This document shows, in pieces, positions 7,037 to 10,531 of a stretch of DNA of 13,094 nt. The translations under genes were made by a program, and so were the position numbers. The stretch spans positions 1-13,094 of the IMG/VR virus record IMGVR_UViG_2703718822_000001. One strand, 5' to 3'. Source of the stretch: a virus (lineage: Duplodnaviria; Heunggongvirae; Uroviricota; Caudoviricetes). Each line of letters starts with the position of its first letter. The first letter of the stretch is position 1. The notes beneath the pieces are model-generated. The model was not told the origin of the DNA and did no database searches. It worked only from the letters and a program-made list of their open reading frames with translations.

Positions 7037-7462
7037 TTAGTGCATCACCACAGCATTCCCTGCCGGGCCGCCGCGATTTATCTGGTCATACAAAACGACC
7101 GCTGACGCAACAAAATCGTCGACATCCTTCACCAGCCGATCCCGCCGTTCGACAATCTCCCGGTAGTACTCAGAACTGTGACTGCGCATACGGGCCACCA
7201 GCAAAGGCGGCATCGCCTTTTCGATCGCCGGTAACAGAGCCTGAATTTTTTCAACAGCATCAGGGGTGTCTTTATCCAGCCAACGGAAAATTTTCTGGGT
7301 ATTACGAGCCAGGGCCTCAGGATGAGTGTCGTCGTACAGTTCCGGGAACGTCATCCCCAGTTCGAAATAAGTCCGGGCTATTTCAGCTGCGGGAACTTTC
7401 TCACCGTCAGGATATGCCCAGGCATTCATCGCCATGCGGATGTGCTCATGCTTGATTTTCAT
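7037..7462 (-). CDS. ydaT: YdaT-family protein (proposed CII-like regulator in Rac-type immunity regions)
   Basis: 141 aa, starts MKIKHEHI and ends ...VVMH, matching my recollection of Rac YdaT (about 140 aa). ATG overlaps the Cro-like stop (ATGA at 7459-7462). Third gene position as in racR-ydaS-ydaT. Confidence 0.55.
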   Translation of the reverse strand: MKIKHEHIRMAMNAWAYPDGEKVPAAEIARTYFELGMTFPELYDDTHPEALARNTQKIFRWLDKDTPDAVEKIQALLPAIEKAMPPLLVARMRSHSSEYYREIVERRDRLVKDVDDFVASAVVLYDQINRGGPAGNAVVMH

Positions 7463-7713
7463 GAATCAACTCCCAACAGCTTTTTCGTAGTAGTTTTATT
7501 TCTGCCAATAGTTAAAATTGCATCGGCAGAAAATAATCCGTTTGATGCATGAGCGATTTTTTCAGCATAATTTGTTTCGCCGGTATATTCAGTGCGAGGC
7601 AATTTTCCGTTATCCATCCATTTGTAGATTGCTCTTTGGCTGACACCACAAACGTCGGCCACAACAGAAACGCGAACAGTTTTGATTACATCTTCAAGTG
7701 TTTTCTGGTTCAT
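7459..7713 (-). CDS. Cro-like HTH repressor (DicC/YdaS family)
   Basis: Start set at ATG 7711-7713 (MNQKTLEDVIK...), with GAGGGTG RBS 6 nt upstream. The ORF-track start at 7785 would leave only 8 bp before the divergent repressor gene. HTH segment VADVCGVSQRAIYKWMDNGKLP. Confidence 0.7.
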   Translation of the reverse strand: MNQKTLEDVIKTVRVSVVADVCGVSQRAIYKWMDNGKLPRTEYTGETNYAEKIAHASNGLFSADAILTIGRNKTTTKKLLGVDS

Positions 7714-7792
7714 ATCACCCTCACAATGTGAACTTTGAGTACACTCTATAACAGAACTGACAGTACATTCAAGAGCGAATATCATTGAACTT
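7714..7792. promoter_or_regulatory. divergent immunity promoter/operator region (PR/PRM analogue)
   Basis: 79-bp AT-rich gap between the divergent Cro-like and repressor starts. Repeated GTACA-core motifs: GAGTACACT (7737-7745) and AGTACATT (7760-7767). Confidence 0.6.
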
Positions 7793-8212
7793 ATGGTTCA
7801 TGAAGATAAAGCGCGTAAAGAGTTCGCCAGTAGGCTTGCGCTAGCCTGTGAAAACGCTGGTTATGAACAACATGGAAGGCAGGCAGAAATTGCCCGTCGA
7901 ATGAAATTAACACCAAAAGCGGTTAGCAAATGGTTTAATGGCGAAACAATTCCTCGCCGAGAGAAATTAAGGGAATTAGCAACACTCATTGGAACAACAC
8001 CAACCTATCTTTTGGGAGAGGATACAGAAGAAAGTGGACAGGTACGTTTCTATCAGGAGTTAAATCCAAGACAAAAAATCATCATTGATCTTCTGGACGA
8101 GCTCCCTGACAGTGAGACAGATGAACTTTTAAAAACTCTTGAGGAGAAAAAACAAAAGTACAATGCAATTTACGAAGAGTTAGCACGAAAGAAAAAACAA
8201 AAAGCCTCTTAA
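7793..8212 (+). CDS. dicA: DicA-like (RacR-like) XRE-family HTH immunity repressor without a peptidase S24 domain
   Basis: 139 aa. HTH region GRQAEIARRMKLTPKAVSKWFNGETIPRREKLRELATLIGTTPTYLLGED. C-terminal LNPRQKIIIDLLDELPDSETDELL... resembles the DicA C-terminus as I recall it. Divergent from the Cro-like gene and followed by ydfA/B/C-dicF-dicB as in Qin. Symbol is by synteny plus resemblance. Confidence 0.7.
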   Translation: MVHEDKARKEFASRLALACENAGYEQHGRQAEIARRMKLTPKAVSKWFNGETIPRREKLRELATLIGTTPTYLLGEDTEESGQVRFYQELNPRQKIIIDLLDELPDSETDELLKTLEEKKQKYNAIYEELARKKKQKAS

Positions 8213-8275
8213 ACCAGCATAAATCCGGTAGCGTCCCCCTCCGGGTTTGTGTTTCACTTTTTCCCATCTCATTTT

Positions 8276-8335
8276 TTTACACATAAAATGTACTTAAAGT
8301 ACTTTACAACACTGAACATAAAGTACATTATATAC
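8276..8335 (+). promoter_or_regulatory. candidate repressor-controlled promoter of the downstream dicB-type operon
   Basis: AT-rich region with -35-like TTTACA (8303-8308) and -10-like CATTAT (8326-8331), overlapped by GTAC-core operator-like repeats ATGTACTTAAAGTACTTT (8287-8304) and AAGTACATT (8321-8329). The 8-mer AGTACATT is identical to that at 7760-7767. Confidence 0.4.
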
Positions 8336-8510: not shown

Positions 8511-8666
8511 ATGGATACTATCGATCTTGGCAACAACGAATCTCTGGTGTACGGCGTGTTTCCAAACCAAGACGGTACGTTCACCGCGATGACGTATACC
8601 AGAAGCAAAACGTTTAAAACCGAAGCTGGCGCGCGTCGCTGGCTGGAAAGAAATTCAGGTGAGTGA
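8511..8666 (+). CDS. ydfA: YdfA-like small protein (51 aa)
   Basis: Start set at ATG 8511 (MDTIDLGNNESLVYGVFPNQ...), which has a GAGGT RBS at 5-nt spacing; the ORF-track start at 8430 has a weaker RBS. Resulting 51 aa equals the K-12 YdfA length, and it is the first gene after the DicA-like repressor. Confidence 0.55.
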   Translation: MDTIDLGNNESLVYGVFPNQDGTFTAMTYTRSKTFKTEAGARRWLERNSGE

Positions 8667-8667
8667 T

Positions 8668-8796
8668 ATGGATTTCGACGCAATCATGGAAAAGGCTTAC
8701 GAAGAATACTTCGAAGGCCTTGCCGAAGGCGAAGAAGCTCTCAGCTTCAGTGAGTTTAAACAGGCGCTTTCCAGTTCGGCAAAATCTAACGACTGA
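8668..8796 (+). CDS. ydfB: YdfB-like small acidic protein (42 aa)
   Basis: Hand-translated: MDFDAIMEKAYEEYFEGLAEGEEALSFSEFKQALSSSAKSND. ATG 1 nt after the ydfA-like TGA. 42 aa equals the K-12 YdfB length. Below the ORF-track cutoff. Confidence 0.55.
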   Translation: MDFDAIMEKAYEEYFEGLAEGEEALSFSEFKQALSSSAKSND

Positions 8797-8825: not shown

Positions 8826-9041
8826 ATGCAGAAACGAGAACCCGTCATCATCGCACCAGACTATACCGAGGATGAAATTTACGAATGGATGTGCGGAAAG
8901 ATACGCGCCATTAATGACCTGAAGCAGGCCGCTGACTACAAAGAGCGCCTCTCTAAAGAACTGGTGTCAGCGGAGCAGGATATTACCACTCTGGCAAAAA
9001 GCGCGGCATTAAACGTTTCGCGAGTGATTGAAAACTACTGA
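8826..9041 (+). CDS. ydfC: YdfC-like small protein (71 aa)
   Basis: 71-aa ORF with GAGGAA RBS. Third small gene of the operon; K-12 YdfC is 72 aa as I recall. Confidence 0.55.
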   Translation: MQKREPVIIAPDYTEDEIYEWMCGKIRAINDLKQAADYKERLSKELVSAEQDITTLAKSAALNVSRVIENY

Positions 9042-9130: not shown

Positions 9131-9577
9131 CTAACCACAAAGAAATCGCATCAATTTGGATTTTGTGGGCAACTTCTCGTGTTGTTCGATGGAGACGCCT
9201 ATTTTGATCTGTGTTTTTAAGATCGCAATATCTTTAAGTGATGACCAAATATGATCATCTGTTTTTCCCAGAGTTTTTAACTGAATTTTCAATTCCGAAT
9301 CAGAATATTTTTCTGCATCATCAAAAAGCTGCAAATATTCTGCGGATTTTCTCATGGCATTACCTGACTTTTGTCCGAATCCATAAATCGTTTGGTCGGT
9401 TGCGATCACAACAATAAAAACGCCAGAAATTTCCGGAATGAATCCGCCAATGACAGATGAACCGAGGATAATACTCACTACTGAGAGAAGTTTATCGAGA
9501 CGACCAGTCGCTACAGAAAACAGTTGCTCAAGAAAATAGCCATATAAAATTCTGTCAAGAATATCATCCCGGTCCAT
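9131..9577 (-). CDS. reverse-oriented two-TM membrane protein; candidate superinfection-exclusion / abortive-infection effector (SieB-like position, SLATT-like topology)
   Basis: 148-aa ORF, ATG at 9575-9577 with AGGTGA RBS. Two adjacent hydrophobic helices (LLSVVSIILGSSVIGGFI and ISGVFIVVIATDQTIYGF) followed by about 78 aa of soluble, charged C-terminus. Locally AT-rich compared with neighbours. Opposite orientation to the dicA-dicB operon and lying where K-12 Qin, as I recall, has only a short ydfC-dicF spacer. Confidence 0.7.
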   Translation of the reverse strand: MDRDDILDRILYGYFLEQLFSVATGRLDKLLSVVSIILGSSVIGGFIPEISGVFIVVIATDQTIYGFGQKSGNAMRKSAEYLQLFDDAEKYSDSELKIQLKTLGKTDDHIWSSLKDIAILKTQIKIGVSIEQHEKLPTKSKLMRFLCG

Positions 9578-9672: not shown

Positions 9673-9926
9673 GACGGAAACCACCTCGCCTGACGTGGTT
9701 AAAAGCAGGCACACAACACGAAAGCGCACGGCGAAGTTCGTCTCACTGCACGGTGTCGTTAAATTTAATTCGACCGTGCGCTTCCGGTTGTGGCGCCCCG
9801 CGAAATGGCGCGGCGGTAAGTATGGCGGGGGTGGGAGGGACGCCTTTCCCCGTTGAGGACACCGGGTTGTCAGGTTGACCATACGCTTAAGTGACAACCC
9901 CGCTACAACGCCCTCTGTTATCAATA

Positions 9927-9984
9927 TTCTGGTGACATTTGGCGGTATCAGTTTTACTCCGTGACTGCTCTGCCGCCCTTTTTT
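9927..9984 (+). ncRNA. dicF: DicF small RNA (ftsZ-targeting) with intrinsic terminator-like 3' end
   Basis: ttctggtgacatttggcggtatcagttttactccgtgactgctctgccgccc followed by a run of six T (9979-9984). This matches the E. coli DicF sequence as I recall it (UUUCUGGUGACGUUUGGCGGUAUCAGUUUUACUCCGUGACUGCUCUGCCGCCC) apart from about two substitutions near the 5' end. Lies 170 bp upstream of dicB as in Qin. Confidence 0.85.
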
Positions 9985-9987
9985 AAA

Positions 9988-10139
9988 AGTGAATTTTGTG
10001 ATGCGGTGAATGCGGCTCAGCGCACGCGGAACAGTTAAAACCAAAAACAGTGTTATGGGTGGATTCTCTGTATCCGGCGTTAATTGTTAACTGGTTAACG
10101 TCACCTGGAGGCACCAGGCACCGCATCACAAAATTCATT
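9988..10139. repeat. long inverted repeat (18-bp perfect core, about 21 bp extended) bracketing 110 bp between dicF and dicB
   Basis: 9991-10008 GAATTTTGTGATGCGGTG is the exact reverse complement of 10119-10136 CACCGCATCACAAAATTC; pairing extends to 9988/10139 with one G-T. The loop contains GTTAAC-TG-GTTAAC (10087-10100) and CCTGG-aggca-CCAGG (10104-10118). Confidence 0.5.
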
Positions 10140-10154
10140 GTTGAGGACGCGATA

Positions 10155-10343
10155 ATGGAAAAGTTATCATGTAATGCCAGCACGTCTGAACTTCGTTTCG
10201 AAATTGGCGTTATCACTGGAGACAAAACATTTATTGAAGACGCCATTAAGCAGAGAAAACTCGAGCAGGACCTGTTAAATGAAGTATGCATTCCTTCAAT
10301 GCTGGCTCGTCTGGACCTGCTGCAAAAAGGATATAAACAATGA
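10155..10343 (+). CDS. dicB: DicB cell-division inhibitor (MinC-dependent FtsZ antagonist)
   Basis: 62 aa: MEKLSCNASTSELRFEIGVITGDKTFIEDAIKQRKLEQDLLNEVCIPSMLARLDLLQKGYKQ. Closely parallels E. coli DicB as I recall it (same length; FEIGV...TEDAI..RK...LLN..CI.SMLARL). GAGGA RBS. Stop overlaps the ydfD-like ATG (ATGA). Confidence 0.85.
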   Translation: MEKLSCNASTSELRFEIGVITGDKTFIEDAIKQRKLEQDLLNEVCIPSMLARLDLLQKGYKQ

Positions 10344-10531
10344 ATACAACATTTGCACTCGTTCTGACAGTTTATCTTGTTTCCGGCGAATCTCTTGAGC
10401 TGGTGACTGGCTTATACGGTTCAATGAAAGAATGCATGGCTGCAGCAGCAGAACAAAAAATTCCCGGTAACTGTTATCCGGTAGATAAAACTACTCACAC
10501 TAATAATAACGAAATACCGGCAGGACTTTAA
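10340..10531 (+). CDS. ydfD: YdfD-like small protein with N-terminal hydrophobic segment (reported lysis-type protein in Qin)
   Basis: 63 aa, equal to the K-12 YdfD length, directly after dicB. N-terminal TFALVLTVYLVSG hydrophobic helix. Confidence 0.55.
   Translation: MNTTFALVLTVYLVSGESLELVTGLYGSMKECMAAAAEQKIPGNCYPVDKTTHTNNNEIPAGL

Follow-up and report, generated by a model that had tools for sequence, protein, structure and literature searches.

The sequence just upstream of dicB in this caudovirus contig raises two questions: whether it encodes a genuine DicF small RNA (sRNA), and whether base changes near the 5′ end of that RNA alter the set of mRNAs it can regulate. The window analyzed here is the whole 13,094-nucleotide (nt) stretch of the IMG/VR record IMGVR_UViG_2703718822_000001.

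The window encodes a full-length DicF with two substitutions in its 5′ arm

Across the whole window, cmscan returned a single Rfam match above threshold, DicF (RF00039) at 9927-9978 on the + strand, which covers model positions 1-52 of 52 with a score of 77.0 bits (gathering score 48; E = 5.9e-16). Alignment to the dicF reference from K-12 MG1655 (b1574, NC_000913.3 1649382-1649434) places the gene at window positions 9926-9978 (+), 53 nt and full length. The preliminary description of this locus had thus been right to call it a DicF homolog, but it had started the gene at 9927, one base late; the initial A is at 9926. The two genes share 51 of 53 positions and differ by just two substitutions: T>A (U>A in the RNA) at dicF nt 1, window position 9926, and G>A at dicF nt 12, window position 9937. 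We refer to alleles by these two bases, so that the window carries A1/A12 and K-12 carries U1/G12. Over nucleotides 13-53 the sequence matches K-12 base for base, the GGCGG...CCGCC terminator stem included, in agreement with the earlier statement that the 3′ two-thirds and the terminator hairpin match. The 5′ ends that had been quoted, AUUCUGGUGACAUUUGG for the window and UUUCUGGUGACGUUUGG for K-12, are both correct, and exact alignment confirms that two real 5′ differences exist.

9926..9978, + strand: DicF sRNA, allele A1/A12, 53 nt (Rfam 77 bits, K-12 alignment, MFE structure)
9979..9984, + strand: terminator U-tract, TTTTTT, six U compared with five in K-12 (sequence and alignment)

In the MFE structure (-15.9 kcal/mol), nt 1-15 form a single-stranded 5′ arm, and nt 16-52 (9941-9977) form a hairpin with an ACUCC anti-SD-like loop. 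The same structure is obtained for all four combinations of nt 1 and nt 12, the K-12 type included. The hairpin doubles as a Rho-independent terminator followed by a U-tract, a feature of the family that is present here. The element shows every family-defining feature that can be checked in silico and is a genuine DicF.

DicF lies in a canonical dicBF operon beside a divergent DicB

The genes surrounding dicF were assigned from their ORF limits, their profile matches and their positions relative to K-12 and to the E. coli genome NZ_AP042495.1.

7459..7785, - strand: HTH regulator of the DicC/Cro type, divergently oriented to the repressor gene (ORF limits; Pfam HTH_17 22.3 bits, below cut-off)
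7793..8212, + strand: DicA-like repressor, 139 aa (Pfam HTH_3 37.9 bits; position as dicA in K-12 Qin)
8261..8331, + strand: two sigma-70-like sites in the repressor-ydfA interval, weak candidates for dicBp (consensus scan, 9/12 matches each)
8511..8666, + strand: ydfA (DUF1391), first gene of the dicBF operon (Pfam DUF1391 98.3 bits; annotated ydfA in NZ_AP042495.1)
8668..8796, + strand: ydfB (PHROG 2061, 92.2 bits; annotated ydfB in NZ_AP042495.1)
8826..9041, + strand: ydfC-like gene (PHROG 1744, 95.6 bits; position as ydfC in K-12)
10155..10343, + strand: dicB, 62 aa, cell-division inhibitor (Pfam PF05358 131.8 bits, residues 1-62 of 62)
10340..10531, + strand: ydfD-like gene (DUF1482) (Pfam DUF1482 69.2 bits)

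The order DicA-like repressor, ydfA, ydfB, ydfC, dicF, dicB, DUF1482 is the canonical dicBF layout of a lambdoid prophage immunity region, and an exonuclease gene follows the DUF1482/ydfD-like gene. With dicB at 10155-10343 and the canonical operon order in place, the proposal that DicF and DicB here constitute a prophage cell-division module stands. The true start of the DicC/Cro-like gene is probably internal to its ORF; NZ_AP042495.1 lists the homolog as an 84-aa helix-turn-helix transcriptional regulator. A YdaT-family gene (window 7037-7462, - strand; Pfam YdaT_toxin 42.6 bits) sits directly downstream of this regulator, a placement that resembles Rac-type immunity regions; in related Sp4-like prophages a RelE/RelB pair lies between the repressor and ydfA instead.

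K-12 DicA represses dicBp (PMC10448788), and by analogy the DicA-like repressor of the window would repress the corresponding operon promoter. From K-12 homology, dicBp under this repressor would drive a ydfABC-dicF-dicB-ydfD transcript. The number of sigma-70-like sites in the region is not above shuffled expectation, and the two candidate dicBp sites were assigned by position alone.

In K-12, DicB inhibits cell division via MinC and also inhibits the ManYZ phage receptor. The window protein is 55% identical to K-12 DicB by BLASTP and is identical at 62 of 62 residues to ECs_1059 of the O157:H7 Sakai prophage Sp4 (WP_000413705.1), as well as to the proteins of E2865 and NZ_AP042495.1. A third type of DicB occurs in the viral-contig sample; it matches the window protein at ~29/62 residues and K-12 DicB at 37/55.

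The window as a whole is a mosaic. Its best match among complete genomes covers 92% at 93.4% identity, and none of the complete E. coli genomes contains it intact. A 211-nt segment around dicF is 100% identical in NZ_AP042495.1, but we rejected that genome as a source of the same element because identity over the whole window is only ~93-94% across 92% of its length. E. coli dicF-region sequence, exact or ~96% identical, also appears in records of unrelated taxa, namely metagenome-assembled genomes labelled Veillonella parvula and Collinsella sp., Aeromonas phage AP1 and Actinobacillus phage vB_Apl-pPE4. These most likely represent mis-binned or contaminating E. coli prophage DNA.

Elements for precursor processing are conserved

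DicF is matured from a longer transcript. Published work describes transcription from dicBp, generation of the 5′ end of a 190-nt intermediate by RNase III and of the 5′ end of the 53-nt RNA by RNase E, and a 3′ end, in the 53- or 72-nt form, that comes from the terminator or from RNase III (PMC5069750, PMC10448788). The window RNA would be expressed and processed in the same way, and the elements that flank it are listed below.

9701..9925, + strand: structured precursor leader, homologous to K-12 (K-12 identity, predicted folds)
9985..10008, + strand: left arm of a long-range stem (24-nt inverted repeat)
10119..10142, + strand: right arm of the long-range stem, shortly before the dicB start codon (24-nt inverted repeat)

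Between 9789 and 9925, the leader is identical to K-12 at 121 of 137 positions, and by analogy the RNase III cut that gives the 190-nt intermediate its 5′ end would fall near 9789. A small leader hairpin (GUUAUCA / UGGUGAC) is predicted to hold the RNase E site AU/AUUC in its loop. At its cut sites RNase E prefers a purine two positions upstream, with A or U next and then UU, and both U and A at +1, the first base after the cut, should fit this preference.

Downstream, the 24-nt inverted repeat is 92% complementary with 110 nt between its arms, and K-12 has it too. The MFE fold contains the long-range stem (z = -5.5). For the 72-nt form, the 3′ end is expected at 9926 + 71 = 9997, inside the left arm at 9985-10008, and the stem is a candidate RNase III substrate for that 3′ end. 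Among ~110 copies, two adjacent pairs of the stem show all four G-C/G.U combinations and are never unpaired, a pattern consistent with a conserved double-stranded RNase III substrate; true compensatory double changes in the stem were absent from the same ~110 copies. [quoted passage not shown] As in K-12, RNase III and RNase E would excise DicF as an Hfq-dependent base-pairing sRNA, with a 3′ end set either by its own terminator or by RNase III cleavage in the downstream long-range stem.

A convergent ORF is inserted upstream of the precursor

Between ydfC and the leader, the window carries an insertion relative to K-12.

9131..9577, - strand: inserted ORF, 148 aa, convergent to the operon (ORF list; PHROG 6315, function unknown, 80.7 bits)

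The predicted protein contains two hydrophobic stretches and has no Pfam or PADLOC match. The ORF is absent from K-12 Qin and present at three of five A1/A12 loci, and K-12 homology resumes only at 9701, past the ORF. From this layout, dicBp transcripts must cross the 148-aa ORF to reach dicF, and the ORF could attenuate read-through from dicBp into dicF and dicB, or it may be a moron gene.

At the extreme, a convergent ORF that breaks the operon between ydfC and dicF would leave a silent relic, a dicF that is intact in sequence yet no longer expressed. The reverse ORF and extra DNA ahead of the precursor, which enlarge the ydfC-dicF gap to 885 bp from 340 bp in K-12, fit this account, as does the fact that K-12 has no known independent dicF promoter (PMC10448788). 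We regard such silencing as very improbable, given that the leader needed for processing is intact, as are the terminator and the RNase III stem, that the allele is found exactly in 204 records with the insertion present or absent, and that the + strand of the insertion shows no convincing intrinsic terminator, with one weak 5-bp site predicted.

A12 is predicted to impair pairing with xylR and to spare ftsZ, pykA and manX

Where the two substitutions fall relative to the known target sites bears directly on their effect. ftsZ pairs with the 3′/central portion of DicF, manX with the 3′ part, pykA with the loop and nt 1-13, and xylR with the 5′ end; only xylR depends entirely on the 5′ arm (PMC5069750). 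The manX pairing lies at G145-C162, about +30..+47 (PMC5861419). Four laboratory mutants are defined in the published primer table: DicF3 (nt 6-8 GGU>CCA), DicF11 (G7C), DicF9 (nt 32-34) and DicF23 (G36C). DicF3 keeps ftsZ repression and loses that of xylR and pykA, and G7C alone abolishes xylR regulation, which a compensatory xylR mutation rescues (PMC5069750).

We computed target energies as region-restricted duplexes plus opening energies, with the literature-defined RBS window as the ftsZ region, and this procedure reproduces the published DicF target sites. Two other approaches were discarded: whole-molecule RNAduplex over -80..+90 windows ignored intramolecular structure and gave over-extended duplexes of -33 to -52 kcal/mol, and sliding-window ftsZ scans picked GC-rich artefacts in the coding region.

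K-12 DicF binds xylR +8..+20 through nt 5-17, an uninterrupted run of 13 pairs in which G12 pairs with C13. In the window allele, A12 faces C13 as an A.C mismatch in the middle of the helix, at a cost of ~5.9 kcal/mol, and the contiguous complementarity to xylR +8..+20, a property of a validated K-12 target and not a family-defining feature, is absent. Hybridization drops to -14.5 from -20.3 kcal/mol in K-12. Total energies (hybridization plus opening) place the window allele between the two published loss-of-function mutants:

xylR total, K-12 wild type: -9.2 kcal/mol
xylR total, DicF11 (G7C), published loss of function: -4.1 kcal/mol
xylR total, DicF3 (nt 6-8), published loss of function: -2.4 kcal/mol
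xylR total, window allele A1/A12: -3.3 kcal/mol

Because the xylR site is nearly invariant (100% identical in 5,381 of 5,408 records), there is no target-side compensation for A12. A12 is therefore predicted, from nearest-neighbor energies and by analogy with a different point mutant, G7C, to impair xylR pairing much as DicF11 and DicF3 do. Hfq sometimes tolerates a single mismatch. By deleting the G-C pair with xylR C13 in the middle of a 13-bp helix, G12>A would strongly weaken or abolish xylR repression. More generally, A12 would narrow the range of targets open to the 5′ arm, as G pairs with C or U and A pairs only with U.

The remaining targets are predicted to be unaffected. DicF nt 24-53 pair with the ribosome-binding region of ftsZ (-28..+2) at -27.9 kcal/mol in both alleles, and hybridization is also the same for the pykA loop site (-21.9) and for manX (-32.2). 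The full bipartite pykA pairing gives -28.2 kcal/mol for K-12 and -28.0 for the window allele: nt 12 lies opposite the U of AUG, where G.U becomes A-U, and nt 1 lies opposite G+11, where a terminal U.G is lost. This terminal wobble is the only pairing in which nt 1 takes part, and almost no effect is predicted for U1>A, which lies where RNase E cuts and borders the pykA pairing. With no change from K-12 anywhere in nt 13-53, the RNA should still repress ftsZ, pykA and manX. When the window was scanned for further complements of the variant arm, with up to three mismatches allowed, only dicF itself was recovered.

These calculations refine the earlier proposal that ftsZ and other mRNAs pair through the 5′ and central regions of DicF, so that changes at the 5′ end might shift target affinity. 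For ftsZ, the central region is indeed involved and the 5′ end is not, since pairing is 3′/central and DicF3 still represses. A shift in affinity is predicted for xylR (-9.2 to -3.3 kcal/mol), whereas ftsZ, manX and pykA change by no more than 0.2 kcal/mol. In our assessment, 9926-9978 is very probably the DicF of a lambdoid-prophage dicBF operon in its A1/A12 allelic form, with repression of ftsZ, pykA and manX kept and that of xylR weakened or lost.

A1/A12 is a recurrent minority allele linked to a DicB variant

To place the allele in the E. coli population, we probed 5,426 complete genomes with four 61-nt sequences, each comprising 8 upstream bases and the 53-nt gene, one per combination of nt 1 and nt 12. 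For a 61-nt probe, the band of at least 99% identity holds exact copies only; the counts are thus records with at least one exact 61-nt copy, and leave out copies that vary at nt 53 or within the 8 upstream bases.

U1/G12 (K-12 allele): 3,670 records
A1/A12 (window allele): 204 records
U1/A12: 121 records
A1/G12: 1 record

An A1/A12/A38 allele, the Sakai Sp4 type, is found exactly in 324 further records. The 12 A1/A12 carriers listed include STEC strains of serogroups O26, O103, O121 and O145, and some genomes with an A1/A12 copy hold a K-12-type copy too. In a second sample of 125 dicF copies from IMG/VR and GTDB, collected with a search pattern that fixed nt 15-42 and to which variation in those positions is invisible, nt 12 is G in 106 copies, A in 14 and U in 5, and A1 occurs only ever with A12. 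In the same sample, nt 53 varies among C, G and A (23 G copies), and rare A10G and G9A variants also fall within the xylR-pairing arm.

The allele is tied to its neighborhood. A DicB of the window type adjoins all four evaluable A1/A12 copies and none of ~120 other copies, and in this sample the A1/A12 allele is always co-inherited with the divergent DicB. Prophages that carry the module include one between potB and potC in OkiPb01678 and Sp4-like elements at yccA in Sakai and E2865. A1/A12 is thus a recurrent, natural minority allele that marks a lineage of the dicF-dicB-ydfD module moving among lambdoid prophages. It is also already known: it is present in hundreds of public E. coli genomes, and its 5′ arm is found in the reference O157:H7 genome. 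The novelty that the preliminary description had implied for the 5′ substitutions does not hold in the face of the 204 exact records, the arm in the reference EHEC genome and the Rfam RF00039 consensus, which itself has "a" at the variant position.

An alternative view is that both substitutions hitchhike in a dicF-dicB-ydfD module that has diverged, and that they are physiologically silent, control of xylR by a sRNA from a normally repressed prophage not being under selection. Between K-12 and the window lineage, DicF has 2 differences in 53 nt and the surrounding 250 nt have ~6; DicF is no more conserved than its flanks, and its changes could therefore be neutral. The occurrence of G, A or U at nt 12 across several DicB backgrounds agrees with this view, and the four G-C/G.U combinations in the neighboring stem suggest free drift and recombination. 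The nearest relative of the window prophage, moreover, lacks a pch gene. Against neutrality stand the tight linkage of A1 and A12, with A1/G12 in one record only, and the experimental finding that the G7C mismatch in the same helix abolished xylR regulation. The G7C result makes a molecular effect of A12 on xylR pairing likely even if that effect is selectively neutral. We consider neutrality a real possibility, although we lean against it, and retain the reading of a DicF allele with weakened or lost xylR control.

Complementarity to pchA is ambiguous with respect to the allele

The allele could also affect pairing with pchA. In EHEC, DicF activates pchA by binding within the CDS, at an anti-SD element by which the ribosome-binding site is otherwise masked (review PMC7769764); reviews disagree on where DicF binds. 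We located pchA on Sakai Sp4 (L133:43365-43739, - strand) and found two candidate sites. Site A comprises pchA CDS +87..+105 paired with DicF nt 1-18; nt 12 lies opposite U93, so that G.U becomes A-U with A12. It prefers A12, with hybridization of -21.2 kcal/mol for A1/A12 and -22.1 for U1/A12 compared with -18.7 for K-12. Site B, at pchA +150..+176 next to a true CUCC, places G12 opposite C158 and prefers G12 (-20.2 compared with -16.9 kcal/mol). When the full pchA mRNA is folded, its MFE structure joins the translation initiation region (TIR) at -11..+1 to +89..+100. Pair probabilities with the TIR sum to 5.8 at site A and to 2.6 at site B, which is also costly to open. The element at +89..+100 also matches DicF nt 10-18, and the 5′ arm of DicF is thus similar to the pchA initiation region. 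At +140..+168, pchA has a second element complementary to the SD, with a true CUCC. These models favor site A over site B, neither of which is established, and leave any gain in pchA pairing from the allele ambiguous.

Could A12 be a specificity switch tuned to this EHEC virulence regulator, improving activation of PchA and then of the LEE? The better hybridization at site A, the masking of the TIR by +89..+100 and the placement of DicF binding in the pchA CDS at an anti-SD element (PMC7769764) are all in line with such retargeting. So is the presence of the A1/A12 arm on the pchA-carrying Sp4 of Sakai and on the Sp4-like prophage of E2865, 18-19 kb from pch. However, the energy gain is small, the second candidate site beside CUCC prefers G12, and the complementarity is modestly above chance, 6 of 200 shuffled arms doing equally well. 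In addition, pch lies 19 kb from a K-12 allele (G12) in E2855 and is missing from the prophage closest to that of the window; we rejected a strict linkage between A12 and pch prophages on these two grounds. Retargeting to pchA is, in our view, unlikely.

In several STEC lineages, the Sp4-like prophage at yccA carries dicF, its DicB variant and a PerC-family (pch) gene, with dicF and pch 18-19 kb apart. With dicF and pch on one such prophage, the sRNA and one of its published targets are physically co-inherited, although the allele is not always A12 (E2855).

A broader formulation treats nt 12 as a natural specificity switch, in which G12 would pair with xylR C13, pykA U2 and pchA U93, and A12 would drop xylR and tighten the targets that face it with U. 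The DicF supplied by STEC prophages with the A1/A12 arm and their own DicB variant would then still block division, but would be uncoupled from xylose control and a better match for the cis-inhibitory element of pchA. We offer this formulation tentatively and with some doubt. The favored reading remains the A1/A12 DicF with xylR control weakened or lost, in which the likely consequence of the substitutions is a narrower target range for the 5′ arm, a specific and cheap prediction for existing reporter fusions.

Comparison with known DicF systems

As a genomic feature, this locus is ordinary, DicF and the dicBF module being textbook material. Natural DicF alleles are nonetheless not interchangeable in silico: the site at which the 5′ arm is most often polymorphic lies centrally in the helix formed with xylR, the only validated target that relies solely on that arm. 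Because EHEC and STEC carry several dicF copies with different arms, experiments on "DicF" in these strains may measure a mixture of sRNAs with differing target sets.

The closest textbook counterpart is DicF of K-12 Qin (b1574; RF00039), with which the window RNA shares its 53-nt length, nt 13-53, the hairpin, the anti-SD-like loop and the terminator, as well as the slot between ydfC and dicB, the downstream long-range stem and the upstream processing leader. It differs from the Qin gene by U1>A, G12>A, one extra U in the tail and the 148-aa convergent ORF upstream. The two elements also differ in that the window DicB is only 55% identical to that of Qin, and in that Qin is decayed, whereas the window element resembles intact lambdoid prophages.

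Sakai Sp4 dicF, beside ECs_1059 and one of four dicF copies in EHEC, shares the A1/A12 arm, the TTTTTTAAAAGT tail and a DicB identical at 62 of 62 residues; the Sp4 copy adds G38A in the hairpin. The two differ in genomic setting, as Sp4 lies at yccA with pchA, whereas the nearest relative of the window prophage lies between potB and potC without pch.

Functionally, the nearest parallels are DicF11 (G7C) and DicF3 (nt 6-8) of Balasubramanian et al. 2016, which place mismatches in the same helix between DicF nt 5-17 and xylR +8..+20 and have a similar predicted loss of energy. The parallel with DicF3 does not extend to pykA: in DicF3, pykA repression is lost since the altered bases, nt 6-8, pair with pykA +5..+6, whereas A12 lies opposite the U of AUG and so leaves the pykA pairing in place. 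DicF11 and DicF3 were engineered, whereas A12 in the window is a natural variant.
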